Shown here: positions 7,965 to 40,313 of the stretch, piece after piece
How the letters are laid out: each line of letters opens with the position of its first letter
How positions within the stretch are numbered: the first letter of the stretch is position 1
Assembly: GCA_965203355.1 (NCBI GenBank)
Contig: OZ241889.1
Coordinates: 2,176,001-2,240,000, forward strand
Direction of reading: 5' to 3'
DNA from: Candidatus Latescibacterota bacterium
GTDB lineage: Bacteria > Latescibacterota > UBA2968 > UBA8231
Length of the DNA stretch: 64,000 nt
Made by a program: the position numbers and the translations under genes
Notes under the pieces: model-generated
Told to the model about the DNA's origin: nothing
Databases searched by the model: none
The model's input: the letters and a program-made list of their open reading frames with translations, nothing else

Positions 7965-9305
7965 TTGCATCGCTCCAGACGCTGGCGTCTCGTCTTTTTT
8001 TTGTGCGTACTTCTGCTGCCGTGTCGCGCTGTTGCCGCACCAGACTTTGCCGCGCTTGAAAAGAGTGTGGTACGCATTATAAGGCAGACCGACCAAGGGC
8101 TTGGTGCTGGTACTGGATTTGCCATAAATGATCAAGGCTATATTGCGACCAATATCCACGTCATAGCCGACGCCAACTCGATCAAAGTCATTCCAACAAA
8201 CTCCAACGAGCTATACGATGTGGAAGTAGTCGCCATGTCCGAGGAGCTCGACCTCGCAATCGTCTATATCCCAGATATAACCTTGCCGCCGATCACGCTT
8301 TCACTCGCACCAGCCACAAAAGGGCAGAAGGTGTGGTCCATAGGCTATCCCGGTGGTGCGGACCGGAACAGACCGGCTTACGATCCGACCGTGCAAGACG
8401 GCGTCATTGGGAGGATTTTTGCCGGAGCATGGCATACGCAAGAGCTCGCGATTATTCAGCACAATGCGCCGACTAACCCGGGCAACAGCGGCGGTCCTTT
8501 ACTAGATGATTGTAACCGGGCAATCGGCGTTAATACGCAGGCGTCTCTCGTCGTCATTACCAGTCCAGCTAGCGGGGTGACGCGGGTGCCCCACGCAGCG
8601 GGCATTTACTGGTCTTCGCATATAAAGGAATTGGCGAACCTATTAGACGACTACGGCATTGCTTTTCAATCGGAGAGCGACGATTGTGTGGCGGCGAGCG
8701 GTACGGGGAGTTCTGGCGGGGCAAAAAAGGCCCAGCGCGAAGCGGAGAAAGCACGACGCGAGGCCGAACAAGCGCGAGTGCAAGCAGAAGAAGCAAGCGA
8801 TCGATTTTTCTTCTGGCTTCTGTTGTTGGGCAGTGTGGCCTTGGCGGCCTTGGTTGTTGCCTTAAAGAAGCCGCGCCAGTTCGCTCAGCAGACCTTGGAA
8901 AAGCCACGCCAGCTCGTCCAACAGATGAGTCGGCGCGTAACCCAAAAAGAAGAGATAGAAGCCATTGCAAAAGGCCCAAGTCGCGGCCTCGTGCTGGCCG
9001 GTTTTGACGGTGGCGGCAATCGCGTCTGCATTGAGTTGTCGCCCGCCCGGTTTGTCGGTCAGCGATTAGGGCTTTCGCTCGGCAGGCATCCCGATTTGGT
9101 GGATGAAATCGTCGCGGATAAAAATGTATCCCGCCGGCATCTGCGGATTGCAGCCGATGGGGATCAATTTTACGTCGAAGATTTGAATTCCAGCAATGGG
9201 ACGTTGCTGAATGAGCAGCGTTTGTCGCCCTTTAAGCCAATGAGGTTGGACTATGGGGCCAAAGTCGCGCTGGGCGATTTGGTGCTCGTGGCGTCCAAAC
9301 TTTAG
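7965..9305 (+). CDS. Signal peptide - trypsin-like serine protease - TM - FHA domain
   Basis: GTGF, TNIH, DLA, PGNSGGPL triad; TM FFFWLLLLGSVALAALVVAL; FHA motifs LGR, VSRRH, SSNGT. Confidence 0.9.
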   Translation: MHRSRRWRLVFFLCVLLLPCRAVAAPDFAALEKSVVRIIRQTDQGLGAGTGFAINDQGYIATNIHVIADANSIKVIPTNSNELYDVEVVAMSEELDLAIVYIPDITLPPITLSLAPATKGQKVWSIGYPGGADRNRPAYDPTVQDGVIGRIFAGAWHTQELAIIQHNAPTNPGNSGGPLLDDCNRAIGVNTQASLVVITSPASGVTRVPHAAGIYWSSHIKELANLLDDYGIAFQSESDDCVAASGTGSSGGAKKAQREAEKARREAEQARVQAEEASDRFFFWLLLLGSVALAALVVALKKPRQFAQQTLEKPRQLVQQMSRRVTQKEEIEAIAKGPSRGLVLAGFDGGGNRVCIELSPARFVGQRLGLSLGRHPDLVDEIVADKNVSRRHLRIAADGDQFYVEDLNSSNGTLLNEQRLSPFKPMRLDYGAKVALGDLVLVASKL

Positions 9306-9319
9306 CTAGGGTATTGAGC

Positions 9320-10207
9320 ATGAAAAAACGCAGCCGAGAGGTCAGCATCTTTAGTATGTCTGCGCTTGATCTGTTCGCATCGGCTCTTGGTGCTTTTATA
9401 CTCATTACCATAGTACTACTGCCCTTTTTCCCGAATCTGAACATAGCGGAACGAGAGAAAGCTGAGTTGGAGCAGGCAAAGGCTCAGTTGGCGCAAGCGG
9501 AGGCCAAATTGGAGCGGGCCGAGGCCAAACTAGAACGGGAAAAGGCCAAATTGGAGCGGGAAAAAGCCAAGCTGGAGCAGGCAAAGGCCAAAGCGCCTAA
9601 AACAAAAAGTCAGCTTGTAAAACGGGTGGAGGCTTTGCAACGGGAGATAGACGACACCACTGTTTTGTTGGGCATTAAGACGAAGGCGAAGAAGTTCGCG
9701 TTCGTCATAGATATGTCGGGCAGTATTTATCAGCGTGGACAGCAAGATTATCGCCAGTTCATAACGTTGTCCATACAAGACATGCTCGCTGCTTTTAAGT
9801 CGGAAATAGCAGTCTGTCTCATTGGTTTTCAAGGCTCAAATCAGTTGCACTATTGGCCTCAAAGTAGAGGCTACTTTCAAGTGAAGAAGAATACGCGCGA
9901 TCGCGTTATGGGACAGGTGAGCGACTGGATGAAATCGGTGGGTGGCGGTACGCCCACACTCGCAGCCTTGCTGGCGGCGATTGCATTGCGCCCCGAAGAA
10001 ATCATCCTATTGAGTGATGGTGCGCCCTCAGAACCCTCAGAAGATTGGCGCATGGTCGTGCGGGCTGTAACGAATAAAAATAGGCAAAAAATACCCATAC
10101 ACGCCGTAGCCGTTGGCAATTACGTGTCAGACCGAAAATTCATTGATTTTCTAGTGGAGCTAACAGAACGGAACAATGGGTATGTCGTGGGAGCCAAGCC
10201 GGGTTGA
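9320..10207 (+). CDS. Membrane-anchored coiled-coil vWA-domain protein (ExbD/MotB-like TM)
   Basis: TM with Asp (SALDLFASALGAF); LEREKAK heptads; MIDAS DMSGS...GGT...LSDG. Confidence 0.85.
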   Translation: MKKRSREVSIFSMSALDLFASALGAFILITIVLLPFFPNLNIAEREKAELEQAKAQLAQAEAKLERAEAKLEREKAKLEREKAKLEQAKAKAPKTKSQLVKRVEALQREIDDTTVLLGIKTKAKKFAFVIDMSGSIYQRGQQDYRQFITLSIQDMLAAFKSEIAVCLIGFQGSNQLHYWPQSRGYFQVKKNTRDRVMGQVSDWMKSVGGGTPTLAALLAAIALRPEEIILLSDGAPSEPSEDWRMVVRAVTNKNRQKIPIHAVAVGNYVSDRKFIDFLVELTERNNGYVVGAKPG

Positions 10208-10208
10208 C

Positions 10209-10577
10209 ATGAACAAGTCGAGATTTTTGGTATATCGAATTGGTCGTGGCTCAGGCGTGGACATCCAGATTGACCATGCTTCGGTCTCTCGTATTCACGC
10301 CGAACTCATTGCGATGCAAAGCGGCTCTTACTACCTGACCGATTGCGCCAGCAGCCGAGGTAGTTATGTTGCGCGGAACGGCGAGTGGAGACGTATCCGG
10401 CAAGAATCTATAAGCGCGACAGACGCGATTTTACTCGGTCATTATCAGACGACCGCACCCGCACTTATCGCCATGGCCGCGCCGAGGGAATGCCGTTCAG
10501 AAGAGGGTGCATCCCGGCCCCAGGGACCAGTGCGGCGCAACGCAGATACGGGTGAGATCATTGGCGAGGAGGATTGA
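10209..10577 (+). CDS. FHA domain protein
   Basis: IGRG, VSRIH, SSRGS motifs. Confidence 0.85.
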   Translation: MNKSRFLVYRIGRGSGVDIQIDHASVSRIHAELIAMQSGSYYLTDCASSRGSYVARNGEWRRIRQESISATDAILLGHYQTTAPALIAMAAPRECRSEEGASRPQGPVRRNADTGEIIGEED

Positions 10578-10578
10578 C

Positions 10579-11364
10579 ATGGCAAAAGGGCAAGGGGTAG
10601 AGCTGGAACAACGCCTAAAAGCGAGCGGCATTAGTCTGTTAGGAGGCATCATATCCATAGCGATTATGAGTCTAATTTTCGCGGATCCCGATTCCGCGGC
10701 CGGTGCTTTCTTGCTAGATCGTCACACGGAAAATTTTCCCTATCCGTTTACGATCCAAAACGTCATGTGGCTCATGTTTTGGGTCGGCTGCGGTGAACTC
10801 TGGGTGCGGTTTAACCAAGCCAAGCTGGAAATGGAGCAGGTGTCAAAACGCTATCTGCCGGAGGACGATGAGGTCATGTTGCGGGCGCGGGATTTGGGTT
10901 CCTTTTATCAAAAGGTGCGGCCTATGGCCGAGAAGCCAACCTTTTATTTGCAGCGTCTGATCATGCGCTGTATTCTACAATTTCAGGGCAGCCATTCCGT
11001 GGACCAAGCCAATTCGCTGTTGAACTCGTCCCTCGAATTATTTCAGCACGAGCTCGAACTCAAATACGCGATGTTGCGCTATCTCGTATGGCTGATACCC
11101 ACGTTGGGTTTTATCGGCACTGTGGTGGGCATCGCGTTTGCCTTGGATTATGCCGCCAACATTGAAGACCCACGGGATCCGACCTTGCTGGCCGGGATCA
11201 CAGGTCGGCTGGGCGTAGCATTTTACACGACCTTGCTGGCGTTGGTCCAATCGGCCCTGCTGGTGTTTGCGCTGCACATTGCACAGAGCCGGGAAGAGAT
11301 GGCGCTAAACCAATCCGGCCAGTACTGTTTGGACAACTTAATCAATCGGCTTTACGAGAAGTAG
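10579..11364 (+). CDS. MotA/TolQ/ExbB proton channel family protein
   Basis: PTLGFIGTVVGI and GVAFYTTLLAL motifs; GAGGAGG RBS upstream. Confidence 0.9.
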   Translation: MAKGQGVELEQRLKASGISLLGGIISIAIMSLIFADPDSAAGAFLLDRHTENFPYPFTIQNVMWLMFWVGCGELWVRFNQAKLEMEQVSKRYLPEDDEVMLRARDLGSFYQKVRPMAEKPTFYLQRLIMRCILQFQGSHSVDQANSLLNSSLELFQHELELKYAMLRYLVWLIPTLGFIGTVVGIAFALDYAANIEDPRDPTLLAGITGRLGVAFYTTLLALVQSALLVFALHIAQSREEMALNQSGQYCLDNLINRLYEK

Positions 11365-11416
11365 CTGTGGGTGAGACGCCTGTACAGCCGGTATAACCCA
11401 AAGATAGGAGGGCACC

Positions 11417-12070
11417 ATGCCTGTTTATCGCGGCCCCGACGGAAAAATCATTGAGGAGAAGACCGCTAAGCGGAAAGAGGAGACCAAACGAACAGACCTA
11501 GCCAACAGGCCGTTGCCGCCGGCACCACAAGGCAGCGAGCAACCGGCTGGTGCCGGGCGTTTAGATGCGCCCACGCAGCGGATGGGTGAAAACCGCGCTC
11601 CGGCCAGTGTCGGCGCGGAGGAGCGGACGCGCTTGGTGGGTGGACGGCGGCGGCAAGAAGATGAGGAGCGGCGGCAAGAGCGCGCCGAAGAAGATCGCGG
11701 CATGGATGATCCGGTTGTAGGATGGTTGGTGATCGTTGAGGGGCCGGGAAAAGGGCGGGCCGTGCAGTTGGGTTATGGTTCCAATCCGCTCGGCCGCGGT
11801 GCAACCGATCGCATCAAGCTGGATTTTGGCGACGATCAGATTTCGCGCAGTGGTCATGCCGTTATTACGTACGATCCACGCGGCCGAAAGTTTTACGTGC
11901 AGCACGGCGGTGGCACCAACCTGACGTATCTCGGCGACCAGCCCGTGCTCACGCCGACTGAGTTGCCGGCGCTGAGTCACATCAACGTCGGTAATACGGT
12001 TCTTCGTTTCGTACCGCTGTGCGGTGCCGAGTTTGATTGGCAAGAGCCAGAAGGTAGTGAAGCGCGATGA
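11417..12070 (+). CDS. FHA domain protein with disordered N-terminus
   Basis: PVVGWLVIVEGPGKG, LGRG, ISRSGH, TNLT. Confidence 0.85.
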   Translation: MPVYRGPDGKIIEEKTAKRKEETKRTDLANRPLPPAPQGSEQPAGAGRLDAPTQRMGENRAPASVGAEERTRLVGGRRRQEDEERRQERAEEDRGMDDPVVGWLVIVEGPGKGRAVQLGYGSNPLGRGATDRIKLDFGDDQISRSGHAVITYDPRGRKFYVQHGGGTNLTYLGDQPVLTPTELPALSHINVGNTVLRFVPLCGAEFDWQEPEGSEAR

Positions 12071-13164
12071 ACGAACTAGACGGACGCTTTGCCGCGCGGC
12101 AAATTCCCGGCAAACGGGAGTATCAAGAGGATGATTACGGCCTGCTGGACGGGCGCGACCTCGGCCTGGATGGCAGCGAGCACACCATGTTGTTGGTGGC
12201 CGATGGCATGGGCGGTCACGTGGGCGGCGCGACGGCTAGCGGCCTTTTGAGTAAGACCTTTGTCGAGGCGTATCCGCTGGCATCCGGGCCCATTGTCGAT
12301 CGGCTCAGGGATTGTCTCGAAGGGGCGAATAAAGCCATCGCCGATGCTATTACCAAAAATCCCGAACTCGACAGCATGGGTTCGACCTTGGTCGCGGCGG
12401 TTGTTTCAAGCGAAGGGCTGAACTGGATCAGCGTGGGCGACTCGCCGTTGTGGTTGTTCCGCGAGGGGCAATTGGAGCGTTTGAATGCAGACCACTCTAT
12501 GGCTCCGGTTCTGGCGGATCTCGTGGCAACCGGGCGTATGACCGCAGAGGAAGCGGCTCTGGATCCGCGGCGGCATTCGCTGCGGTCGGCGGTCATGGGC
12601 GATGACATACATTTGGTTGACGTGTCGTCGCAGCCGGTAGCTGTAAAGCAGGATGACCGGCTGCTATTGGCGAGTGATGGTTTGATGACCCTCAGCGAGC
12701 AAGAGATTGCCGCTATTCTAAAGGAAACGCAAGACGCGTCGTTGGAGGATAGTGCTGCGGCCCTCATCCAAGCAGTGGAAACTGCCGAACAGCCCCACCA
12801 AGACAATACGACTGTCTTGTTGTACGCGCCGGCCGTGGGGACGAAATCGGCGGCGGCTGTTGACGAGAGAGAAGCTGCTCAGGACAAGCCGCGATCAGGC
12901 CGAAAACGCTGGGGCAGACTGTTAGGGATGTTACTATGCGTTGTTGTCTTATGGGGGGTGCTTTATTGGCTTAGGCAGGGCGAAGATGTGGCTGAAGATG
13001 TGGCTGTTGAGCCGCCAGCGGCAACGTCTGATGTTCAACGATCAATAGGAGCCGACGCCAAAGAGAATGCCCCGGCTTCTCAGGAGGAGGTGACAAGAGA
13101 CAGCATGCGTGTGGGCGAGAAAGTCGAACTTAACGAGCCACAAGAAGGAACAAGCTATGAGTGA
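12067..13164 (+). CDS. PP2C-family Ser/Thr phosphatase with C-terminal TM
   Basis: QED, VADGMGGH, MGST, VGDS, ASDGL, DNTT motifs. Confidence 0.95.
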   Translation: MNELDGRFAARQIPGKREYQEDDYGLLDGRDLGLDGSEHTMLLVADGMGGHVGGATASGLLSKTFVEAYPLASGPIVDRLRDCLEGANKAIADAITKNPELDSMGSTLVAAVVSSEGLNWISVGDSPLWLFREGQLERLNADHSMAPVLADLVATGRMTAEEAALDPRRHSLRSAVMGDDIHLVDVSSQPVAVKQDDRLLLASDGLMTLSEQEIAAILKETQDASLEDSAAALIQAVETAEQPHQDNTTVLLYAPAVGTKSAAAVDEREAAQDKPRSGRKRWGRLLGMLLCVVVLWGVLYWLRQGEDVAEDVAVEPPAATSDVQRSIGADAKENAPASQEEVTRDSMRVGEKVELNEPQEGTSYE

Positions 13165-14239
13165 GGAACAGCATCGCTTGGCGTTGCCCCAAGGGACGCG
13201 CATACGGGATTTTGAGTTTCATCGGGTCCTTGGCCACGGCGGTTTTGGCATCACCTATCTGGGGTGGAACGTCACGTTGGATATTCCCGTGGCGATCAAG
13301 GAGTATCTGCCGGCCGACTTGGCGACCCGGGAACAAGACCTGTCGGTTGTGCCCCAGACGTCGCAGGCGGCGGCGGATTTTCAATGGGGTTTGGATCGGT
13401 TCTTGGACGAGGCGCGGACGCTGGCGTGCTTTCAGCATCCCAGTATCGTCCGTGTGCATCACTTTTTTGCGGCGCATAGCACGGCTTACATTGTGATGGA
13501 CTATGTGGAAGGGGAGGACTTGTCGGCGTATCTGACGCGCAAAGGGACGCTGACCGAAGCCGAACTCAAGGCAATTCTATATCCGCTTTTGGACGGTTTG
13601 GCGGTCGTGCATGGCGCGGATTTTCTGCATCGTGACATCAAGCCGGGCAACATCGTCCTGCGGGATTCGGATGGCTCGCCGGTGCTGTTGGATTTTGGCG
13701 CGGCGCGTCAGGCGATCGGGGCTAAGAGTCGTTCGGTTACGTCTATCGTAACGCCGGGGTATGCGCCGATAGAGCAGTATTCGAGTCGGGGTCGTCAGGG
13801 TGCTTGGACGGACATTTATGCGTTGGGTGGGGTGTGCTATCGGGCGTTGACGGGAGATGTGCCGGCGGATGCGACGGATCGGGTTCGTCATGATCCGCTG
13901 GTTGCGGTCTCGCAGCGGTGTGCGGGGCGTGCGAGTGCTGGGTTTCTTTCGGCGGTTGATGAGGCGTTGTCGGTGGATGAGGGGGATCGTCCGCAGAGTA
14001 TTGTGGCGTGGCGGACAGCGTTGGGGGCGGAAGGGGTGGCAGGAAAGAGGCGGGAGACAGGAGGTGCCTCAGACGTGCAGCGTAAGGAGTCACGGCCGCG
14101 TCCTAGTGAGCCGGTTGTGAGAGCTGAACGGTCTGGCAATAAAGAAGAGGAAAGGGGTTGTATTGATAAAGGTCTTAGGATGTGTGGGATGCTATTTTTG
14201 TTTTTGATCGGCCTTATTATTTTGGTCAATAGTTGCTGA
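13157..14239 (+). CDS. Ser/Thr kinase with C-terminal membrane anchor
   Basis: Kinase motifs near-identical to those of the kinases at 4671 and 2579; terminal TM helix. Confidence 0.93.
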   Translation: MSEEQHRLALPQGTRIRDFEFHRVLGHGGFGITYLGWNVTLDIPVAIKEYLPADLATREQDLSVVPQTSQAAADFQWGLDRFLDEARTLACFQHPSIVRVHHFFAAHSTAYIVMDYVEGEDLSAYLTRKGTLTEAELKAILYPLLDGLAVVHGADFLHRDIKPGNIVLRDSDGSPVLLDFGAARQAIGAKSRSVTSIVTPGYAPIEQYSSRGRQGAWTDIYALGGVCYRALTGDVPADATDRVRHDPLVAVSQRCAGRASAGFLSAVDEALSVDEGDRPQSIVAWRTALGAEGVAGKRRETGGASDVQRKESRPRPSEPVVRAERSGNKEEERGCIDKGLRMCGMLFLFLIGLIILVNSC

Positions 14240-26460: not shown

Positions 26461-26757
26461 ATGCACAGGCCCCGCGCATCATTCCCCACAGCCCCATCTA
26501 TAGCCCGTCTGGGCGGCGAGCTCAGTGCAGTCATCAATCGGGTGCGAAGTGCTTTCGGCCCCATTCCCATGCGCGGCTCGGCTACCCGTCCCCGAGTTCA
26601 ACGGGCCGAGCAAGTCGTCGATCAAACCGCTCGTCAGCTCTTGCGCGGCGAAGCAGACCTGAGCGCGTGGTACCGGGTGCTGCGTCAATACGAAGATGCT
26701 TGGATGCTAGAGTTGGAAAAGGTGCGCGGGGCGCGGGCCGAGCGCTGTGCGGCTTAG
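26461..26757 (+). CDS. Hypothetical protein (98 aa)
   Basis: AGGAGG RBS 7 nt before ATG, downstream of the strong promoter; no family recognised. Confidence 0.6.
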   Translation: MHRPRASFPTAPSIARLGGELSAVINRVRSAFGPIPMRGSATRPRVQRAEQVVDQTARQLLRGEADLSAWYRVLRQYEDAWMLELEKVRGARAERCAA

Positions 26758-27017
26758 CGGAGATGGATCTCGTCCACTTTGCCGACGATAGCTGCATCCG
26801 TAGGCAGTGGAGGGGCGAAGGCATTGCAGGCTTCGCGTGCGACCTCGACGATCACCGCGTCGCCCTCGCGCAAGGCTACCCAAGTCGCGCAGACCTCGGC
26901 TTCGCCCACAAGCGCTAGGCGCTCGTCAATGTCTTGGGTCAGGTGCAATATCTGGCCGCGGAACGGCTCAATGCACTGGGAAAGCACTACGGTGCCCACC
27001 ACCTTGGCTAGTTTCAC
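26754..27017 (-). CDS. EutN/CcmL BMC vertex protein
   Basis: MKLAKVVGTVV...GDAVIV...DAAIVGKVD; GTGA overlap with the upstream gene. Confidence 0.85.
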   Translation of the reverse strand: MKLAKVVGTVVLSQCIEPFRGQILHLTQDIDERLALVGEAEVCATWVALREGDAVIVEVAREACNAFAPPLPTDAAIVGKVDEIHLR

Positions 27018-27274
27018 GCGGCCGCTCCTTCGTCGATAATACCCACGATCACGCTCCTGCACGGGGGCCGCTCGGCTCCGGTCACCGCGGCCCCGGCAGC
27101 CCCGGACTGCACGACTAGCACTTTGACGCCGATCCCCGCCTGGACCCCATCCACCGCTACTTGCAAAGCACCGCTCTCTTCGGCTTCGGAGCGGACCACC
27201 ATGATCTTCTGCCCGGCGAGCAAGGGATGCTTGCTGCTGGCGACTACGTGGCCAATGACGCGGCAGACCCTCAT
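27014..27274 (-). CDS. EutN/CcmL BMC vertex protein
   Basis: VIGHVVASSKHPLLAG, VAVDGVQAGIG, IVGIID. Confidence 0.9.
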   Translation of the reverse strand: MRVCRVIGHVVASSKHPLLAGQKIMVVRSEAEESGALQVAVDGVQAGIGVKVLVVQSGAAGAAVTGAERPPCRSVIVGIIDEGAAA

Positions 27275-27573
27275 GCTACTTGCTTTTCTAGGGCGCGTCC
27301 AAACGCCTGTAGCGAATCCACGATGCCGATGATCAGCGCATCTACGGGCATCTTATCCATGCCCGGGGCCTGCCGTGCCGAGCTGCCCTGCACGACGACG
27401 ACGAGTTCGTCTTCGCCCGCTTGTACGCCATCGATGCAGACGAGGTGCTTCTGGGTGCGCTGCAAGCCCTCGGGCGTGGTGGCCAGGATCTCGACTATTA
27501 AGAGTTTTTCGCCTTCGAGCGCATCTACCTTGGCGCTGGAGACCACGTGCCCCTTGACGAGACCGAGTATCAC
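27271..27573 (-). CDS. EutN/CcmL BMC vertex protein
   Basis: GHVVSSAK...GEKLLIV, DGVQAG, GSSAR, PVDALIIGIVD. Confidence 0.92.
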   Translation of the reverse strand: MILGLVKGHVVSSAKVDALEGEKLLIVEILATTPEGLQRTQKHLVCIDGVQAGEDELVVVVQGSSARQAPGMDKMPVDALIIGIVDSLQAFGRALEKQVA

Positions 27574-28826: not shown

Positions 28827-28960
28827 GTGAAGATCCTTGTGGTATTTATGTTTAGCAGTACATAACAGCATCAGGTTAAGCTGTCAATAGCACCCTACTT
28901 GAGGCCGGGCGATTGGTTTGTTGCCCGGTGCGGAGTTCACCTGTACGGGAGTGTCAACTA

Positions 28961-30025
28961 ATGAAATTCGTCATTCGCGCCGGCGGGGTGGGTACGCGGC
29001 TGTGGCCCTATAGCCGTGTGCACAAGCCCAAGCAGTTCCACTGCATGGCCGGCGAGCAGACCATGCTACAAGACGCGGTCGCCCGCATTGGCGCGATTGC
29101 CGCGCCGACCGATGTGTACGTATCGACCGGAGATCCGTTGCGGTCCTTGGTGCGCGAGCAGGTGCCGACGCTGACGCCCGAGCGGCTCATCGTCGAGCCG
29201 GCCCGGCGCAATACTGGCCCGGCCATCGGCTTGGAGTGTGCGCTGCTAGAGGTGCGCCATCCGGGCTGTACGGTCGCTAGCTTGGGATCGGATCACTACA
29301 TAGGTCGGCCCGAGGAGTTCTGTCGCTTGTTGCAAGTCGCCGACCAAGCCCTAACCGATCGGCCCGGCTATTTGTTTACGCTCGGAGTCAAGCCGACGCG
29401 CGCTGAAACTGGCTATGGCTACATCCGCCGAGGCTCCATGCTAGCGCAGGTGTGCGGGACATCGGTGTACGAAGTCGCCGAATTTACCGAAAAGCCTGCG
29501 GCGCAGCAGGCGGCTGAGTACGTGGCTAGCGGCCATTATTTGTGGAACAGCAACATGTTCGTCTGGAAGGCGGCGACCGTGCTGGAGCTTTTGGCCCGCT
29601 TTGAGCCGGAAATGTACGCTGGGTTGCAGCGCATCCAAGCGGCCGTTGGCACACCGCAAGAGGAAGCGATCATCGCCCGCGAGTATCCAAAGCTCAAGCC
29701 GATTTCCATCGATCACGCCTTGGTCGAGCGCGCTCCCAAGGTAGCCACACTAGAAGCGGATATCGACTGGGGCGACATCGGCTCTTGGTCGGCACTGACG
29801 GACGTGTTGCCGACGGATGCGGCCGGCAATTTGTTGGCCGGCGAGGTGATGGCGTTGGATACGGCCCGTTCAACGGTGTATGGGCCGGCCGACAAGATCG
29901 TGCTGCTGCTGGGGGTGGAGGACTTGGTCGTGGTGGATACTGAAGACGCACTGCTGGTGTGCGCGAAGGGGGCGGCGCAAAAGGTGAAAGACGCGGTGGA
30001 TCTGCTGAAAGAGCAATATCGCTAG
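28961..30025 (+). CDS. manC: Mannose-1-phosphate guanylyltransferase
   Basis: AGGVGTRLWP.SR..PKQF, EPARRNT, ETGYGYI, FTEKP, WNSNMF, WGDIGSW. Confidence 0.9.
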   Translation: MKFVIRAGGVGTRLWPYSRVHKPKQFHCMAGEQTMLQDAVARIGAIAAPTDVYVSTGDPLRSLVREQVPTLTPERLIVEPARRNTGPAIGLECALLEVRHPGCTVASLGSDHYIGRPEEFCRLLQVADQALTDRPGYLFTLGVKPTRAETGYGYIRRGSMLAQVCGTSVYEVAEFTEKPAAQQAAEYVASGHYLWNSNMFVWKAATVLELLARFEPEMYAGLQRIQAAVGTPQEEAIIAREYPKLKPISIDHALVERAPKVATLEADIDWGDIGSWSALTDVLPTDAAGNLLAGEVMALDTARSTVYGPADKIVLLLGVEDLVVVDTEDALLVCAKGAAQKVKDAVDLLKEQYR

Positions 30026-30157: not shown

Positions 30158-30409
30158 CTATTGAGACGCGATAAAAATAATGATGAGAACCATAACAAGT
30201 GCTACCACTAACCCGAAGCAGCCGAAGCCAGAGAAGGAGTGTTCGATCTCTCTGCCCCAACGTTCAGAAAACGTCCCGTCTTTCTTGTCACCTCCCATCG
30301 CCTTTATTGCCGAGAGTATAGCTAGGCCTAAGAAAATAATCGCTATCGGTGGTAGTGGTATTGTTACGAAGGCTAATATGAGTAAAACGACAGCAACAAG
30401 GCATCCCAT
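30158..30409 (-). CDS. Small membrane protein (island)
   Basis: 83 aa, mostly hydrophobic; GGAG RBS; last gene of the minus-strand island operon. Confidence 0.6.
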   Translation of the reverse strand: MGCLVAVVLLILAFVTIPLPPIAIIFLGLAILSAIKAMGGDKKDGTFSERWGREIEHSFSGFGCFGLVVALVMVLIIIFIASQ

Positions 30410-30430
30410 TGATTTGTCTCCGATATAGCA

Positions 30431-31243
30431 CTAAAACGCTTCACTCACCATCAGCTTGTAGAAACGCGACTCCACGGCCTGCAAGCGCTGCTGATAGAGC
30501 TTTTTGTCCGTTGGGCCGGTTGAATCAAAGACCCGCACGAAAAATCGACACTTTCTCGACTTGGACCACCCGAATAAGTCAGACGTTGAAGAAAGAAAAA
30601 GTTGTTCTGAAATGTCCTGATTCAAGACGATTTCTTGCACGGGTAGTGCCTGCCGTTCACTCGCTCGCTGCGGCAAGTCGGTCTCCCGCACGACTAAGCC
30701 GATGGGCGTCAGGTTCACGTCGTATATGTATTCAATGGTTCCGTCGTCATGCGTCCAACAGGATGGGACTTCAGTACCTTTGCCTACCGATTCCCGCACC
30801 AACTCCAACAGATGTTCTACATTCCTTTTTCCATCTGGTAGCAACTCCCGAATGGCTGAGTATTCACGTCCCAATTCTAGCGTGTTTATTATGGTTTCCG
30901 GTTCGGACAAAAAACCAGCTTCTTCTGTGGTATTCTGAAGCCTTTCAAGTTGTTGCTTTGTATCTCGGAGCAGTACCAGTTCACGCTGTAATTCCTCGAT
31001 ATTTTTACCGCTACTCGGCAACACTTCTTGAACAATGGAAAGCTGGGCTTCGAGTTGGTTGATTGTTTCTTGGCGTTCTTCCGCTACGCGCTTGGCTTCT
31101 TTCTGCTTGTCTTGTTGGTGTACCAATAAGGCGGCAAAGGCGAGCAGCAGAACGAAGATGATGAGAATGGCGATCTCAGCCATTGTGAGACCGAGGATAA
31201 GACCTTGCCGATAGGACGCGCTCCGCTTTTCAAAGTTTGCCAT
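30431..31243 (-). CDS. MotB/ExbD-like single-TM coiled-coil protein
   Basis: TM with acidic residue (LTMAEIAILIIFVLLL); coiled coil; C-terminal domain with PSCW...CRFFV. Confidence 0.6.
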   Translation of the reverse strand: MANFEKRSASYRQGLILGLTMAEIAILIIFVLLLAFAALLVHQQDKQKEAKRVAEERQETINQLEAQLSIVQEVLPSSGKNIEELQRELVLLRDTKQQLERLQNTTEEAGFLSEPETIINTLELGREYSAIRELLPDGKRNVEHLLELVRESVGKGTEVPSCWTHDDGTIEYIYDVNLTPIGLVVRETDLPQRASERQALPVQEIVLNQDISEQLFLSSTSDLFGWSKSRKCRFFVRVFDSTGPTDKKLYQQRLQAVESRFYKLMVSEAF

Positions 31244-32378
31244 CTGCGGGCCGTTGTTCGTCGGCTGTTCGTTTTGTCGATGTTTCAGACTGTTGGAGAA
31301 GAGTTGCGATGAAGTCTTCGGATGTTTGTATATTATTGATCCTCCCAACAAGGTCACTCACGCTGGCAGACACTGCCTCCGAATTGGATTTTATCGCGCT
31401 ATCTAAATTCGATACTTGTGCATTAAAATCGGATACGGTCTGACCGAAACTGTCGAGGTTGACTTGAAACTGCTGAATCGGGGATTGCAGAAGTCGTTCG
31501 AGTAGGTCTTTGGGCACGTCCATTTTGTTGATCTTTTCAACAAGGTCTCTAACACTGGCAGATAACGCATCCGAACTGGCATTTACTTGTTCGGCTCCGG
31601 TTTCAATGCTCTGTACGGAGGGACGTAGGAGTTGTTCGAGTAGGTCTTTGGGTACGTCCATTCTGTTGATCTTTTCAACGAGATCTTCCAAACTGGCAGC
31701 CACCGCGTCCGAACTAGAATTGACTACACTATTGAGATTTGACACTCGCTCGTTGAGGCCGGATACGGTATTGACGAAACTATCGAGATTGACTTGAAAC
31801 TGATCACGGCCCTCTTCAACAGTCTTAGTGAAACGAGTCACTGATGATTTGAATTGAGTAATAGCTTTCTTTTGTCTCTCGCCTGCCTCTCTGAGGATTT
31901 GCTGTAGCTCTATTCTAAAAGAGGAAAACTTTCTCAGTTCATAGTCGAGGTCGGACACGCCCTTGCTGAGCTTGCGTACCGTGTCGCTGAAATCGGATAC
32001 CGTGTCTTCCGGGTCTTTTTGCATTAAGTCAAAAAAGACCCGGAAAGCGATGCCAAATATCGTTGAAAAGATAGCGATACCAAAGTTCGTGATGATCGGG
32101 GCAATCGTTTCGACAGCTTCGTCACTTGAGGAGAACTCAAAAAGCGACATCGCCAAGCTGACGAGAGTATATAAAAATCCAAGGTAATATAAGTTATCTC
32201 CAACTTTACTGAGCTGAGATTGATGCTTTATATAATGATAGCACGCATAGACCAACATGATCGAGATCGGACAGGCAGTCACGAAAAACTGGCTCATGTC
32301 CAGTAGCTTGAGAATTATGATCCCTGCTGCTCCTATCAGGGCAGCAATCATGAAAATGTTTGGATTCAATTTCGTCAT
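31230..32378 (-). CDS. MotA/ZorA-like membrane protein with long repetitive helical tail
   Basis: YYLGFLYTLVSL and FGIAIFSTIFG motifs; tail with DLVEKINxMDVPKDLLE repeats. Confidence 0.65.
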   Translation of the reverse strand: MTKLNPNIFMIAALIGAAGIIILKLLDMSQFFVTACPISIMLVYACYHYIKHQSQLSKVGDNLYYLGFLYTLVSLAMSLFEFSSSDEAVETIAPIITNFGIAIFSTIFGIAFRVFFDLMQKDPEDTVSDFSDTVRKLSKGVSDLDYELRKFSSFRIELQQILREAGERQKKAITQFKSSVTRFTKTVEEGRDQFQVNLDSFVNTVSGLNERVSNLNSVVNSSSDAVAASLEDLVEKINRMDVPKDLLEQLLRPSVQSIETGAEQVNASSDALSASVRDLVEKINKMDVPKDLLERLLQSPIQQFQVNLDSFGQTVSDFNAQVSNLDSAIKSNSEAVSASVSDLVGRINNIQTSEDFIATLLQQSETSTKRTADEQRPADGKL

Positions 32379-33175
32379 TCATTCATCCCGGAAGTTCTAA
32401 GTACGCGCACTACTTGGCCTCCATGCTGAGAGAACCAAGACTGGAAGAATTTCAACAGAGGGCCACCGTCTCCCTGCTGCCGTTGCCGCCTTTGAATGAG
32501 CCATAGTTCTATATCGACGCCCCGAAGATCGGGGTTTAAGCCGCGAGATTCATGGGTTTGCCGGAAGCGGCTGAAGTCTGGCGACCCTCGATAGAACGAA
32601 CATACGTCACTATTTTGCATAAGATCTGAAATAACGATGAGACGCCGCGGAACGCTGCGCCGTTCGGTATCTTGGAAGTGCGTTAGAGAAACCGACTGAA
32701 TAGACTCCATAATTGGCGACGATGGTGCTTCTTTTTCATCAAGCAGACTTTGCAGAACTTCTTCCATGGGCTGCCGGAATTTACGCTGCCAGTTTCGACT
32801 AACTATTGCTTGGGATTGGATTAGCGGATCGACATCTTCTGGATCGCCGGGATTGCAAACCTTAATGATCGGCTCAAGGCTCTTTTCATGGGTGGATTCC
32901 ACCGTAAAAAGGCTGATTTCGTGATTTTCTTTGACCGTATCTAACAGGTTCTTGATCTGAACCTTCAGATCGTCCTTAGTCTGAGTACTAAAGGAATCGG
33001 TGCGATCAAGTAAAAGGGCTGTAATTGAATACGGCCCCTCGGATCTGCAAAGAGTTGCGGGGTCCCGGACGATGGGCTCGGGTTTCAACAATACGAGAGC
33101 AACCACACCTCCGAGAACTAGGGCGATCATCGCCCCGCCTGCGATGTAGTTTACGTTTATGTATTTTGATGACAT
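32375..33175 (-). CDS. Membrane-anchored vWA-like protein
   Basis: N-terminal TM; LLLDRTDS, SPIMESI, LIVISDLMQ MIDAS-like motifs. Confidence 0.6.
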   Translation of the reverse strand: MSSKYINVNYIAGGAMIALVLGGVVALVLLKPEPIVRDPATLCRSEGPYSITALLLDRTDSFSTQTKDDLKVQIKNLLDTVKENHEISLFTVESTHEKSLEPIIKVCNPGDPEDVDPLIQSQAIVSRNWQRKFRQPMEEVLQSLLDEKEAPSSPIMESIQSVSLTHFQDTERRSVPRRLIVISDLMQNSDVCSFYRGSPDFSRFRQTHESRGLNPDLRGVDIELWLIQRRQRQQGDGGPLLKFFQSWFSQHGGQVVRVLRTSGMNE

Positions 33176-33206
33176 GACGGCTCTTTCCAATAGTTTGCAA
33201 CTGGGC

Positions 33207-34613
33207 TTATTCGGTTGATGCTGATAGGCGATGCCCTGCCAATTTTCGCAAATCCCTACAGACAGCATCGTATTCTTTTAACAGTTCCTTCTCGCCGTTA
33301 TCAACTCTTGCTCTCGTACCAGAAATGACCTCTTTAATTTCTTCGAGTTTCGGCAAATCCTCTGGCAAGGCCCTGTCTATTGGCGATAATTCTTTGATTT
33401 TCCATGGGTCATTGAAGCGGTCAGGTGCTTCTCCACCTCGTGTCTCACGGTTGATCGATCGGTAGCGTTTGAGCAAGCGATTTCCTATCTGCTCCAAGTC
33501 GTTTAGGTAATCCTCATATAATTTGATAACGTGCCTATGGCCGTCTAAGATCGAAGCGCGTTCCACTTCTAATCCCATGAGTCTTTGTATGATGCTGTTC
33601 AGTTTTGCGACAACTTCATTAAATATCCTTTCTAGTTCTTTTAAATGATTGTCATAAGCATCTTTGTAGTTTTTATACTCACCCTCATAGCGAAAAAACA
33701 CCTTTCCATAACCGGGATAGGAGTCGCCGTCCCATTTTATGCCATCAATAAAGCTAATAATTGCAAAAAGGAACCCCATACAGAACAGCATCCATGACTG
33801 GAACTCCCTTAGCCCCAATGGATTCTCGAGAAAAGCGGACATGGCGAGTTGTCCGCCTTCGTCGAGTATGGTTCCCGTTATTTCTCGATAGTGTGCAACC
33901 ATTAGGTTAAAGAAGAATGCAAAGACTACAAATGCAATTGCGGCGAGGATGCCCGCTGATTTTCTACTCCACTTAATATGATGACAGTTGGCAATAAGCC
34001 GCCCGAGTAAGAAAGCGACGCCGAGGTTGGCAAACGAAATAACAATGGCCTCAGTATAGGCACCGAATAGCCCCAGTTCGTTGCCCTTTGCCAGAAAGGA
34101 GGCGTTACCCAAGGTTTCAATGAGAAAGAGCACGGCGATAATACCTGAAGCAAATAACCCGTATCCCTCACGGTGCTTACTCGCCTCACGATCTATGTTA
34201 TTCTTCTTCTGAAAATCCTTCAAGCGATATTCTGCTTTTTTTAGCAGAGGTCGTCTTGCTCGCAAATCCGTAATAGCCTTTTCAGCCGCCTTCTTGAGTT
34301 TTTCTCTACCAATGCGAATTTCGCTATCAATAGAGTCATCGCGGAATGATGGGATGATCTTGATAAGACGCTTTCGGTCTGAAGTTAGTTGTATGTCACT
34401 TGTGTCCTTTGCTTTTGATTGATATTCTTCGATTTTCTCGACAATCTTCACTTCGGTTTTATCGAAGTCTGTACTGTCTAGCAAAGGCAGTCCCTGTTTC
34501 CCCGCTTCTATAGCTTCTTCCTCTATATGTAAATCGGCTGCTATCTTATTTGCGGAGATTTTCTCAAACAGATCAGTTGGCATCTCGTAGTTCTCCTTTA
34601 TGGGTTCGCTCAC
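33207..34613 (-). CDS. Four-TM protein with long coiled coils at both ends
   Basis: Central hydrophobic helices flanked by charged heptad regions; AT-richer codons. Confidence 0.75.
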   Translation of the reverse strand: MSEPIKENYEMPTDLFEKISANKIAADLHIEEEAIEAGKQGLPLLDSTDFDKTEVKIVEKIEEYQSKAKDTSDIQLTSDRKRLIKIIPSFRDDSIDSEIRIGREKLKKAAEKAITDLRARRPLLKKAEYRLKDFQKKNNIDREASKHREGYGLFASGIIAVLFLIETLGNASFLAKGNELGLFGAYTEAIVISFANLGVAFLLGRLIANCHHIKWSRKSAGILAAIAFVVFAFFFNLMVAHYREITGTILDEGGQLAMSAFLENPLGLREFQSWMLFCMGFLFAIISFIDGIKWDGDSYPGYGKVFFRYEGEYKNYKDAYDNHLKELERIFNEVVAKLNSIIQRLMGLEVERASILDGHRHVIKLYEDYLNDLEQIGNRLLKRYRSINRETRGGEAPDRFNDPWKIKELSPIDRALPEDLPKLEEIKEVISGTRARVDNGEKELLKEYDAVCRDLRKLAGHRLSASTE

Positions 34614-34861
34614 TACCCAATGGCTTTTGATTTACCAGCGGGCATAAGGATGCAAAGACCCAGCCGCGGGCCGGGCCATGTGTGCATCTCACAGGTTTTT
34701 TGGAGAAGTTCTGCCTATTCGCCGGGCTTCAGGGAGCTACCCTGTGCCGAATCAGGCTGTTTTATTTAACAGATAACCCGACGGTCGCGGGTACCTGCTT
34801 GATGCACACAGAGAACAATATATAAACCAAAAACCTTCTTTGTCAAAAAATTATTTGTTCT

Positions 34862-35067
34862 CGGATGCGGTCGGTGAGGTGATGGCGTTGGATGCGGCCC
34901 GTTCAACGTATATGGGTCGGCCGACAAGATCGTGCTGCTGGGGGTGGAGGACTTGGTCGTGGTGGATACTGAAGACGCGCTGCTGGTGTGCGCGAAAGGG
35001 GGCGGCGCAAAAGGTGAAAGACGCGGTGGACTATCTCCGAGAGCAGCGGCGCGAGAAGTACCTCTAG
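34862..35067 (+). pseudogene. Displaced, indel-damaged copy of the manC 3' end
   Basis: 34862-35030 matches 29814-30000; ends DYLREQRREKYL* only 2 bp from the convergent phyH-like stop. Confidence 0.88.
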
Positions 35068-37910: not shown

Positions 37911-40313
37911 CTATTTGCGCTCGGCGATTTTGCAGACCCAGATGCTGATTTCGTAGAGCAGGAGCAGGGGCAGAGCCATGAGAAGTTGGGAGACCGGATC
38001 GGGCGGCGTGAAAATCGCGCCGAGGACGAAGATGCCGATGATGGCATAGCGGCGGATATGGCGCATCCGCGCGGCGGTCAGTACGCCGACCTTGGCCAAG
38101 AAGAGCGACAGCACCGGCATTTCAAAGACGATGCCAAAGCCGGCTATGAGCCGCAGCACAAAGCCTATGTACTCGTCGGCCGCCCATTGCGAGGTCATGT
38201 CGGGCGGCTCTAGTGCGAGGAAAAAGCGCAGCCCGAGCGGGAGGACGATGTAATAGGCGATCAGGGTGCCGACCGAAAAGCAGAGGACGCTCAGCGAGAT
38301 AATGGGCAGCACGAGCCGTTTCTCGCGCTGCAAAAGCCCTGGGGCGACAAAGTGCCAAGCTTGGTAGAAGATGATCGGCAGGGCCAGCAGCAGCCCGCCG
38401 ACAAAGGCGATTTGCAAGCTGATGAAGAAGTAGGTCATGGGCCGGAGGGCTTGCAGCCGACGCGCTGGGGGCAGGTCGGTGCTGGGCGCGTCCGGTTCGG
38501 GCGCACTATCGGGTGGTCCCAACCACTGACTCACCAGCTTCTTGATCGCCCGCACCGCGCCCGAGGATTGCTGGCTTTCCAAACTGAGGACGGCCTCTTC
38601 GTATGGCCGGGTCAAAAGTTGCACGATCGAGTCGGAGAAGGCAAAGCAGATCACCGCGCCCACGGCGAGCGCGGCTAGGGCCTTGAGAATGCGCCAGCGG
38701 AGTTCTTCGAGGTGGTCGAGAAAGGGCATGTTGGCCGCTCGGGGCGCGTCTGGTGCGGGTTCGTCTTGATCGGCCGTTGGCTCGCGGGTGGGGCGGGGCT
38801 CGCGGAAACGGGCGACAAAAGCGACTAGCGCGATCAGCAGGCAGCCCACGGCGAACAGGTCGCCGTGCCGCGTGTAGAAGGTCGCGGGTTGGCCGACCGG
38901 CACGGTGGCCACGGCGACCGCCGGGGTGAAAAGGTCGGTCGCCTCGTAGGTGCGGCCAAATGGGTCGATGAACAAGGAGATGCCGGTGGTGGCGGAGCGG
39001 GCGATGGCTGTGCGGTTTTCAATGGCGCGCATGGCGTTGATGAGCGCGTGTTGGTAGGGGCCGGCGCTGCGGCCAAACCATGAGTCATTCGTGATATTGA
39101 CCAGTACGCGCGCCCCAGCCGCCACGTGCTGGCGCACCAGATCGGGAAAGATGGACTCAAAGCAGATGAGCACGGCAAAAGGGTGCCGAGGATGGGCAAA
39201 AACCGCATGCTCGGTGCCGCGTGCAAACTCGGCCGGGCCGAGATCGCCAGTCAGGCGGGTCCAGTCGATGTCGCGCAGCAGCGGGATCGCGTCGCGGTAA
39301 GGCGTCCGCTCGCCAAAGGGCACTAAGTGCATCTTAGCGTACGAAGGCAGCGATCCGGCTCCGGGTTGGACGAAGAAGGCTGCGTTGTAGTTGGCGTGCG
39401 GCGCGCCGGTCAGCAAGGGGATGTCCAACTCCTCGACGAGTGCTTGGACGCGGCTTCGGCAACCAGCCTGGCGCACGGGGTCGCACGGCACGGCCGTCTC
39501 GGGCCAGACTAGTAGCTCTGGATCGCGCTTGGCCGCTTGGCGCGAGAGCGTAGCGAGGGCTGAGAAAGTGCGCTCCAGCCCGTTAGGACCCCACTTGTCG
39601 GCGTATGTAGTGTTGGGTTGAATCAGGCCGATGCGCAAGCCCCCGTCCGAGACGGCTGTCGCTAGGGTGCTCTGGGCGTGGAGCCAAGGCAAGAGATAGC
39701 CCAAGGCAACGCCCACGAAAAAGACGCGCCGCTCGACGAGTGCTAGGTAGAGTAGCGCGTTGAGGCCGACGACCCAGCAGGAGACGCCAAAGACACCGGT
39801 CCAAGCGGCGTACTGGATGAAGTGCGGCAAGGCGGCTTGGCTGTGCCCCAATAGGAGCCAAGGAAAACCCAACTCCCCGAGCGAGAGCAGATATTCCTGC
39901 CCGGTCCATAATAAAGGTAGCAGCCCGAGTGCCTTCGCTCCCCACCGTGCGGCGAGCCCGTTGAACAGCCCAGTGCAAAGGCCGGTAAAAAGGCCCAAAT
40001 AAGCGGCCATCAGTCCGGTGCCCCCGACGACGGCCAGCCCGCCGCCTTGGGTATAGGCCACCCAGTACAGGGACAGCAGGTTCCACGCGAACCCGCTGAC
40101 CCAACCCGCGGCAAAGCCCGCTTTGAAGCCGCGATCCTTCAGCACCAGTAGCAAAGGCACCAACGCACAATGGGCCCAGAGTGGATGATAGAGAAAGGCG
40201 AGTGGGTGATCAGGATGGCTGGGAAAAGCCAGTGACAGCAAGGCCCCGCTCAAGGCGGCGAGCAGCAGGCGGGAAAGCGGGGTTAGAGGCAGGACAAGGC
40301 GCGGATTAAACAT
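37911..40313 (-). CDS. Fusion of apolipoprotein N-acyltransferase (Lnt) and TatC
   Basis: Lnt WPETA / KMHLVPFGE / ICFES / NITNDSWFG, then linker, then TatC MPFLDHLEELRWR, FVAPGL, FEMP, TPPD; no stop between. Confidence 0.9.
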   Translation of the reverse strand: MFNPRLVLPLTPLSRLLLAALSGALLSLAFPSHPDHPLAFLYHPLWAHCALVPLLLVLKDRGFKAGFAAGWVSGFAWNLLSLYWVAYTQGGGLAVVGGTGLMAAYLGLFTGLCTGLFNGLAARWGAKALGLLPLLWTGQEYLLSLGELGFPWLLLGHSQAALPHFIQYAAWTGVFGVSCWVVGLNALLYLALVERRVFFVGVALGYLLPWLHAQSTLATAVSDGGLRIGLIQPNTTYADKWGPNGLERTFSALATLSRQAAKRDPELLVWPETAVPCDPVRQAGCRSRVQALVEELDIPLLTGAPHANYNAAFFVQPGAGSLPSYAKMHLVPFGERTPYRDAIPLLRDIDWTRLTGDLGPAEFARGTEHAVFAHPRHPFAVLICFESIFPDLVRQHVAAGARVLVNITNDSWFGRSAGPYQHALINAMRAIENRTAIARSATTGISLFIDPFGRTYEATDLFTPAVAVATVPVGQPATFYTRHGDLFAVGCLLIALVAFVARFREPRPTREPTADQDEPAPDAPRAANMPFLDHLEELRWRILKALAALAVGAVICFAFSDSIVQLLTRPYEEAVLSLESQQSSGAVRAIKKLVSQWLGPPDSAPEPDAPSTDLPPARRLQALRPMTYFFISLQIAFVGGLLLALPIIFYQAWHFVAPGLLQREKRLVLPIISLSVLCFSVGTLIAYYIVLPLGLRFFLALEPPDMTSQWAADEYIGFVLRLIAGFGIVFEMPVLSLFLAKVGVLTAARMRHIRRYAIIGIFVLGAIFTPPDPVSQLLMALPLLLLYEISIWVCKIAERK

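Follow-up and report, generated by a model that had tools for sequence, protein, structure and literature searches.

A widespread four-gene cassette with a predicted ZorAB/MotAB-type ion motor and a vWA-fold partner, in a probably acquired island of a Candidatus Latescibacterota bacterium

Ion-driven 5:2 motors lie behind flagellar rotation, gliding, Ton/Tol transport, and Zorya defence, and each new motor context has revealed a new way of converting ion flow to work. For Zorya, the available part of the structure paper describes the axle aspartate (Asp26 in Escherichia coli ZorB) as "universally conserved and mechanistically essential" in the motor class, and reports two disulfides in the peptidoglycan-binding domain of ZorB (PMC11946911). 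The family assignments of ZorF and ZorG are DUF3348 and DUF2894, respectively (PMC11890865). Inner-membrane-tethered vWA proteins encoded next to tolQR-like genes are the subject of a 2025 paper in Mol Biol Evol (PMC12204202), the accessible portion of which distinguishes a family whose vWA protein combines a long linker with an SHLS/His helix of the TolA/TonB type from a family in which the vWA protein is itself the Asp-bearing axle and there is no TolR gene. Here, we compare these systems with a locus in a 64,000-nucleotide stretch of contig OZ241889.1 of Candidatus Latescibacterota (assembly GCA_965203355.1; positions 2,176,001–2,240,000 of the forward strand). This whole stretch is the window, and coordinates are given relative to it. 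At 30158–34613, five minus-strand open reading frames (ORFs), g1 to g5, are tightly packed head to tail in the manner of an operon. Chances appear about even that g1–g4 encode, as we favor, a horizontally acquired four-protein inner-membrane machine built on a ZorAB/MotAB-type ion motor and with envelope surveillance against invading DNA as its likeliest role. The ZorAB-like motor is the well-supported part of this proposal; the anti-phage role is only inferred.

The first four genes of the island travel together as one cassette. A scan with the g3 alignment, with one genome taken per species, yielded 80 loci, in which profile searches of six-frame ORFs detected g1 in 70, g2 in 73, g3 in 80, and g4 in 78. 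All four genes are present in 69 loci, and in 69 of 69 they are in the order g1-g2-g3-g4 on a single strand. Among the 11 incomplete loci, six are records of less than 5.4 kb (L018, L043, L044, L059, L061, and L074) and another, L055, has just 1.3 kb of sequence upstream of g3; in all seven, a missing gene may lie beyond the available DNA. Four loci with full flanks (L054, L058, L063, and L064) have the g3-g4 pair alone and no detectable g1 or g2; in these, the motor pair may combine with other partners. An earlier reading of this DNA from sequence alone (hereafter, the sequence-only reading) proposed a unit of five genes and suggested a look at neighborhood conservation. The unit is conserved, but with four members rather than five. 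We rejected g5 (30158–30409, minus strand) as a core component; this 83-residue, small hydrophobic, lineage-specific protein was found by phmmer in only 2 of 80 loci, L001 and L002, and has no family match in Pfam, PADLOC, or NCBIfam. Across the 80 loci, no fifth gene is conserved beside g1–g4.

Distribution of the cassette is broad. Record titles of the 80 loci name about a dozen phyla, and the taxa include Latescibacterota, Alpha- and Gammaproteobacteria, several orders of Acidobacteriota, Nitrospirales, Verrucomicrobiota, Bdellovibrionales, Desulfobacterota, Cytophagales, Obscuribacterales, Saccharibacteria, Binatia, and a metagenome-assembled genome (MAG) of Dehalococcoidia. Among 1.84 billion cluster representatives (50% identity level), the g1 profile matches 4198 at E ≤ 1e-3 and 2239 at E ≤ 1e-30. 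Relatives of g2 are carried on 24 of 72,556 plasmid records, which are from Rhizobium (12), Paracoccus (6), Sinorhizobium (3), Microvirga (2), and Tistrella (1).

The product of g3 (31230–32378, minus strand; 382 residues) has a four-helix membrane core (residues 1–120) followed by a helical cytoplasmic tail (residues 121–382). Relative to PADLOC models, it matches ZorA1 with an E of 3.6e-7 (residues 87–361, largely the tail) and ZorA2 with an E of 9.3e-5 (residues 51–265). Its first 125 residues align to PF01618 with an E of 0.09, residues 51–115 on profile positions 44–106; the g3 orthologues of five genomes were not among PF01618 matches at E ≤ 1e-5. When 81 g3 cores were compared in hhalign with MotA/TolQ/ExbB proteins from five carrier genomes, the alignment (E 3.9e-4; probability 35%) placed LYYLGfLyTLvSL on the LGxxGT helix and NFGIAL-TTI-G on the ALxTT helix. 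In this register, T71 and T106 of g3 are aligned to the GT and TT pore positions. These two threonines, as well as D61, Y64, G67, F99, G109, and R113, are each present in 80 of 80 aligned orthologues.

Fold comparisons also point to these proteins. Its AlphaFold2 (AF2) model is confident in the membrane part only, with a predicted local distance difference test (pLDDT) of 78–93 for residues 1–80 and ∼81 for residues 101–120, versus 63 overall. In a Foldseek search with this model, the top three matches are TolQ chains, TolQ/ExbB/PomA account for most of the top 11, and ExbB, PomA, ZorA, and MotA chains occupy much of the top 50. VIA-align, run on the model with low-confidence stretches trimmed, matched g3 to a 99-residue chain of type II ZorAB entry 8vvi (subunit not stated in the output) with a Z of 10.0 and a root-mean-square deviation (rmsd) of 2.5 Å over 95 residues, to TolQ with Z of 9.2–9.5, and to ExbB with Z of 9.1–9.5. 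All of these matches span model residues ∼26–125, and the fold matches overall have rmsd of 2.5–3.8 Å over 88–95 residues. The sequence-only reading had called g3 a MotA-like protein with a long repetitive tail as in ZorA and had suggested a search for a MotA fold. Both the assignment and the fold match hold, the latter at weak Z values (9.1–10.0).

The tail of g3 is built of repeats. Three diverged 99-nucleotide direct repeats (31297–31725, minus strand; repeat family D1, 68–83% identity) encode its modules, and each has the motif LVxKINxMDVPKDLLExLL. Orthologues range from 298 to 546 residues in length, as set by the number of repeats, and repeat expansion appears to determine tail length. 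For example, g3 has 546 residues in L001 (6004–7644) and an open frame of ∼1000 residues in L036 (5947–8955), relative to the 382 residues in the window. In profile searches of PDB sequences, the sole match of g3 that is neither a coiled coil nor a designed protein is a ZorA-type chain, 8vvn_C (E 2.6e-4), via the tail.

Overlapping g3 by 14 nucleotides is g4 (30431–31357, minus strand, 308 residues; the likely start is the ATG at 31243, which gives 30431–31243 and 270 residues). It encodes a single transmembrane (TM) helix with an LTMAE motif, then a coiled coil that acts as a linker and varies in length, and finally a C-terminal domain that contains Cys (PSCW...KCRFFVR); an acidic residue in the TM helix had been noted from sequence. 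PADLOC ZorB1 models match g4 with E of 7.8e-6 to 9.5e-6 at best, and on its TM region the values are 7.8e-6, 5.6e-4, and 7.5e-3. With the first 99 residues alone, three ZorB1 models give E of 6.6e-6, 9.5e-5, and 7.5e-3, on the N-terminal helix. Within YRRGLVLGLTMAEIxILIIF, residues G14, G18, E23, and F30 are invariant in 56 aligned orthologues. All 78 of 78 orthologues have Glu as the membrane carboxylate, and none has Asp. Most orthologues have a C-terminal domain to which no family is assigned, with two conserved Cys (PxCW ... CRFFVR) that likely form a periplasmic disulfide. Searched against ESM Atlas, this domain had a best score of 0.87 and no family, and profile searches of PDB sequences with g4 returned coiled-coil or designed helical proteins. 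The sequence-only reading had also stated that g4 has no OmpA domain. This is correct for the window, where g4 has no Pfam OmpA match, but not for the family. Among 10 orthologues chosen for their weak similarity to the g4 of the window, seven match OmpA (PF00691) at E ≤ 0.01, one of them above the cut-off, and of six plasmid loci inspected, three have a g4 orthologue that RefSeq names "OmpA family protein".

Several results weigh against a motor. The strongest ZorA1 match of g3 is mostly in the coiled-coil tail, where composition inflates scores, and coiled coils dominate the profile search of PDB sequences with g3. Curated thresholds are far off: the NCBIfam model of antiphage ZorA_4 scores 21.6 bits (E 8.4e-5) relative to a cut-off of 500, ZorA_1 scores 13.3 bits relative to 190, and PF01618 scores 13.0 bits relative to a gathering cut-off of 22.9. 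Foldseek gave no match to the g3 model at E ≤ 1e-3. VIA-align itself warns that Z below ∼13 is common for helical bundles, and the g3 values of 9–10 are in that range. An hhalign comparison of the g4 N-terminus with small ExbD-like and MotB-like sets reached a probability of 1–2%, which is not significant. If these observations are taken at face value, g3 and g4 would share generic helical and coiled-coil features with motor proteins and do an unrelated job, for example as a membrane scaffold or channel; every sequence match is under its curated cut-off, the Z values are within the noise of helical bundles, and the hhalign probabilities are low for both proteins. We regard this as very improbable. 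The PF01618, hhalign, and fold matches share one register, with the same two invariant threonines in pore helices. The adjacent g4 independently matches ZorB models on its TM helix, has an invariant carboxylate, and in some orthologues has an OmpA-like domain, as in MotB and ZorB. The motor reading, with a minimal MotA/ExbB/TolQ-like core and pore threonines in g3, is well supported, though by sub-threshold evidence that agrees across methods.

Upstream of the motor genes is g2 (32375–33268, minus strand, 297 residues), which overlaps g3 by 4 nucleotides. Lengths of orthologues suggest that its start is the ATG at 33175, resulting in a 266-residue protein (32375–33175). The AF2 model, made from an alignment of 71 sequences, has a pLDDT of 92.8, a predicted template modeling score (pTM) of 0.87, and a vWA fold. 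Foldseek found 235 PDB matches at E ≤ 1e-3, and the best 50 of these are led by integrin I domains, BatB, vWF A3, the Sec23/24 trunk, and calcium-channel alpha2-delta. Because Pfam VWA models (VWA_3) recognize just two of the 71 members, the vWA assignment is based on structure; it agrees with the anchored vWA-like protein read from the sequence. In PADLOC, g2 has no family match at E ≤ 1. N-termini of g2 orthologues are rich in Arg/Lys and continue into one hydrophobic helix, and in four (L065, L069, L075, and L079) the anchor is replaced by a lipoprotein-type signal ending in Cys (a lipobox). Because of these features, we judge that the vWA domain is outside the cytoplasm, in the periplasm, where a signal anchor or lipobox would hold it. 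A disulfide in the periplasm would also suit C44 and C108, which are near-invariant. The canonical motif of the metal ion-dependent adhesion site (MIDAS) is D-x-S-x-S ... T ... D. In g2, D185 is invariant and D58, D61, S154, P155, and S184 are nearly so, in loops after strands 51–57 and 178–184, and they form a MIDAS-like pattern, D-x-[TS]-D ... SP ... SD, whose first motif departs from D-x-S-x-S.

A vWA domain judged periplasmic and co-conserved with the motor genes makes a non-defence role in force transduction a serious rival, one that we consider possible if somewhat unlikely. The cassette would then be driven by protons and serve the envelope in housekeeping or at the surface rather than in defence, its motor powering g2 for adhesion, envelope maintenance, secretion, or gliding-type work. 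Force transduction by inner-membrane-tethered vWA proteins beside tolQR-like genes is proposed in the accessible part of PMC12204202. The cassette is also near-absent from phages, and it is on large rhizobial and Paracoccus replicons amid ordinary genes, once by a PBP1A gene and once by a type VI secretion system VgrG gene. Features of the proteins argue in the other direction. Protein g2 lacks a long periplasm-spanning linker, as its vWA fold in the model starts ∼20 residues past the anchor, and the anchor has no conserved His or SHLS-type motif and is in some orthologues a lipobox. It is not obvious what outward force transduction would need from the long g3 tail or from the coiled coils of g1, both cytoplasmic. 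Finally, a patchy distribution, deviation in GC content, plasmid carriage, and insertion between target repeats suit accessory genes.

The first gene of the cassette, g1 (33207–34613, minus strand; 468 residues), encodes four hydrophobic helices between N- and C-terminal coiled-coil regions, as had been recognized from its sequence. Polar residues in or near the membrane helices are conserved (E166, N170, N196, N236, and H241/R243, the last in FNLxVAHYR), and further motifs are DDPYPGYG after the fourth helix and YRxANxxAR in the C-terminal coiled coil. No Pfam, NCBIfam, or PDB-sequence family matches g1, and PADLOC at E ≤ 1 gave just Cas12c (E 0.023). The nearest clusters in ESM Atlas are unnamed hypothetical proteins, and profile searches of PDB sequences returned coiled-coil or designed helical proteins. 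Nor is g1 detectably a second MotA, as hhalign of its membrane part gave a probability of 3% relative to MotA/TolQ/ExbB; relative to the g3 core and ExbD, the probabilities are 0.2% and 0.15%, respectively. A complex prediction of g1 (residues 140–330) with g2 scored 0.03, which gives no verdict either way.

Composition and location of the island point to horizontal acquisition, in line with the sequence-only reading of an AT-richer island at the 3′ end of manC. GC content is 0.42–0.50 within the island and 0.57–0.67 in both flanks. The flanking gene (28913–30025, plus strand) is an intact mannose-1-phosphate guanylyltransferase gene, manC (phmmer vs. PDB 2x5s, E 5e-58). Its 3′ end of ∼180 bp (29836–30015, plus strand) is repeated at the far edge of the island as a frame-broken remnant (34869–35045, plus strand). 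The two direct copies, found as repeat families D2–D6, are piecewise 86–97% identical, and small indels in the second destroy the frame. With a copy of the manC 3′ end on each side, the island is bounded by a target duplication, an arrangement typical of integrated islands, although its ORFs include no integrase. Two MAG chromosomes of Latescibacterota, L001 and L002, are syntenic with the window, with 82–89% nucleotide identity over the flanks, the island, and the manC remnant; the insertion is therefore predicted to be older than the split of these species and that of the window. In two other Latescibacterota, L003 and L004, the cassette is 71–75% identical and the flanks have no detected homology to those of the window. 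Where loci have enough flank, the cassette is >3 GC points under its surroundings in 28 of 65 and above in 5 of 65. These patterns suggest that the operon was horizontally acquired. Within the operon, g4 and g5 are spaced by 21 nucleotides. Upstream of g1 is a promoter-like site, TTGACA-18-TATATT (34817–34846, minus strand), which is a consensus match only (11 of 12 positions), and such sites are no more numerous in the region than in shuffled sequence.

Genes near the cassette vary. The sequence-only reading had stated that no nuclease or helicase effector is present, and neither is found within the island of the window. Across the family, however, the commonest neighbor is a staphylococcal-type nuclease (SNase) with a signal peptide, encoded in the fetched flanks of 13 of 80 loci (L006, L010, L011, L012, L017, L035, L037, L039, L040, L041, L063, L066, and L067). 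It is on either side and either strand, often <650 bp away. At least several of the SNases have a C-terminal stretch rich in Cys, and Pfam Excalibur matches 2 of the 132 nearest-neighbor ORFs. The latter were taken one per side with three near-duplicate loci excluded, and among them Pfam also recognizes SNase in six, Endonuclease_1 in two, S1-P1 nuclease in one, resolvase in two, and PIN in two; a PADLOC model of SNase type matches five. A thermonuclease is annotated next to the cassette in four of the six plasmid loci inspected (L111, L112, L115, and L117), one of which has CHAT, DUF4041, and antitoxin genes nearby and one of which is flanked by insertion sequence transposases. In two of the six, the cassette is amid transport and regulator genes.

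The recurrence of nucleases raises an alternative in which the motor and vWA protein work with a secreted nuclease in extracellular or periplasmic DNA handling, such as uptake, scavenging, or degradation. The signal-peptide SNases, the Endonuclease_1 and S1-P1 neighbors, and the plasmid thermonucleases all fit this. Most loci, including that of the window, have no nuclease nearby, and where there is one its side, strand, and distance vary. Secreted nucleases of the SNase kind are, moreover, often carried by plasmids and mobile elements as cargo. Taken together, we find a dedicated role in DNA handling improbable.

We favor a Zorya-like role in envelope sensing because of the ZorA-type tail of g3, the mobile and accessory behavior of the cassette, the scattered defence and mobile-element genes nearby, and the recurring secreted nucleases. 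In the mechanism we propose, g3 would form a ring around a g4 dimer in a 5:2 motor, and ions passing the Glu of g4 and the threonine pair of g3 would turn the g3 ring. The periplasmic anchor and sensor would be the C-terminal domain of g4, which in some orthologues is OmpA-like, together with the vWA domain that g2 holds close to the membrane. The g3 tail would relay a signal to the cytoplasmic coiled coils of g1, which, given its conserved polar membrane residues, is a candidate membrane effector and the protein best suited to provide an output, for example as a channel. The machine would survey the envelope for phage or other mobile DNA following the logic of Zorya without cytoplasmic nucleases, and a secreted nuclease may be an accessory part in a minority of genomes.

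Other observations do not favor defence. The cassette has no recognizable cytoplasmic effector, and most of its neighbors are ordinary metabolic or transport genes. No relatives of g2 are on any of 50,697 phage records; one IMG/VR viral contig carries all four genes. The scattered defence genes that suggest such a role are, among the 132 neighbors, single PADLOC matches to type II restriction, methylase, DRT, HEC-01, PDC-S04/S24/S52, SoFic, RmrA, pVip, and mad2. How many distinct ORFs these represent is not stated in the PADLOC output, and the matches lack a background control.

A broader proposal is that the cassette represents a new, widespread, envelope-resident class of immune system, in which a Glu-based 5:2 motor would be coupled to vWA as a periplasmic sensor and to a coiled-coil effector with four TM helices, with action at the membrane or in the periplasm and not by way of cytoplasmic nucleases. 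In some genomes, a secreted nuclease would destroy DNA before entry, and g4 would be the first MotB-type axle to use glutamate. We put this forward tentatively and consider it, as a whole, unlikely. The cassette warrants attention in either case. It is common (the g1 profile alone has 4198 representatives), spans about a dozen phyla, is entirely unannotated, and departs from a residue that the field treats as universal. If it has a role in defence, it would be an all-membrane system with a periplasmic sensor and would bear on the way in which motors of the Zorya type sense an infection at the envelope. If not, it would define a new motor-driven envelope function. A tractable carrier, Rhizobium johnstonii 3841 (plasmid pRL11), makes the cassette open to direct testing.

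Elsewhere in the window is a second pair of vWA and motor genes, which the sequence-only reading had described as a parallel of the island. The pair is real, with a vWA protein at 9314–10207 (VWA_3, E 1e-9) and a MotA_ExbB protein (PF01618) at 10507–11364 (E 6e-10). We rejected it as a paralogue of the island, as neither g2 nor g3 has BLASTP similarity to it. Its architecture is also different, in that the vWA protein itself carries a ZorB-like TM; the N-terminal TM region matches PADLOC ZorB1 (E 1.9e-4). The pair appears to fit the family without TolR, with vWA as axle, in the accessible part of PMC12204202. It is embedded in a phospho-signaling cluster (6324–14239, plus strand) that encodes two trypsin-like+FHA proteins, the vWA and MotA_ExbB proteins, an FHA protein, a PP2C phosphatase, and a Ser/Thr kinase, with no separate MotB/ExbD gene seen. 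At 37911–40313 (minus strand), one 800-residue ORF combines apolipoprotein N-acyltransferase (residues 15–507; E 5e-32 vs. PDB Lnt) and TatC (residues 614–800; E 7e-43), which could reflect an unusual fusion of Lnt and TatC or else an assembly error, with a stop or frameshift missed. At 26754–27573 (minus strand), three adjacent small ORFs (86–102 residues) encode putative microcompartment vertex proteins, resembling the EutN/CcmL type.

Compared with described systems, the vWA protein g2 resembles BatA/BatB. Top matches of its fold include BatB (3ibs, E 1.4e-5) and an aerotolerance-related vWA protein of Bacteroides fragilis (4jdu), and like BatA/BatB it has an N-terminal membrane anchor. Unlike BatA/BatB, the cassette has no MoxR ATPase, DUF58, or TPR partners, and the MIDAS-like motif of g2 is altered to D-x-[TS]-D. 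Similar to the vWA proteins covered in the accessible part of PMC12204202, g2 is predicted to be periplasmic and tethered to the inner membrane, and is encoded beside a MotA/TolQ-like gene. But it differs from both families described there, since it has neither a TonB-like nor an axle helix and the cassette has a separate axle in g4; the g2 anchors have no conserved His or acidic residue among the 36 of 71 shown, of which four are lipoboxes.

Relative to MotA/TolQ/ExbB (PF01618), the last three helices of g3 match over ∼92 residues, the LG-x-x-x-T and T-T/S-T signature motifs align, and a partner with a carboxylate helix, g4, is immediately downstream. In contrast, g3 is below the PF01618 cut-off and has a minimal core of 120 residues, its partner has Glu as the carboxylate, and the cassette has neither a TonB/TolA-type partner nor a flagellar context.

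The closest parallels are with Zorya. As in ZorAB, a MotA-like protein with a long helical cytoplasmic tail is encoded beside a MotB-like, single-TM protein with a membrane carboxylate. Two pore helices have Thr/Ser, T71 and T106 in g3 versus Thr147 and Ser184 in ZorA (numbering from the available part of PMC11946911). As in ZorB, some g4 orthologues have an OmpA-like domain and the periplasmic domain of g4 has conserved Cys. Distribution is likewise patchy and mobile. One explanation is thus that the cassette is an ordinary member of a catalogued system, Zorya I, II, or III or another in PADLOC, for which the weak ZorA and ZorB matches are all that speaks. We consider this extremely unlikely. 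PADLOC has no family for g2 and nothing but the Cas12c match for g1; neither protein has Pfam DUF3348 (ZorF) or DUF2894 (ZorG), as assigned in PMC11890865, and g1, g2, and g5 have no PADLOC or Pfam match to ZorC/D, ZorE, or ZorF/G. Gene order differs, with two extra membrane proteins, g1 and g2, ahead of the motor genes, and hidden Markov model scores are far under family cut-offs. Apart from the three g4 named for OmpA, orthologues in the six plasmid loci are no more than hypothetical proteins in RefSeq, and a published description of the four-gene cassette was not found in the literature searched, which did not cover supplementary lists. The system was earlier read as undescribed, and as it reaches the curated cut-off of no family in PADLOC, Pfam, or NCBIfam, it still appears so. 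The motor proteins differ from Zorya too. The four helices of g3 are short, and it lacks a cytoplasmic domain next to the membrane. At ∼260 residues, the g3 tail is much the shorter one, and it consists of repeats that appear as hairpins, at low confidence, in the model. Because curated ZorA cut-offs are unmet, the axle Asp is replaced, g4 of the window has no peptidoglycan-binding domain, and ZorC, D, E, F, and G are absent, the cassette is not a member of Zorya I–III. Since the available part of PMC11946911 calls the axle Asp universally conserved, the Glu found in its place in every g4 orthologue is a real departure within this motor class.

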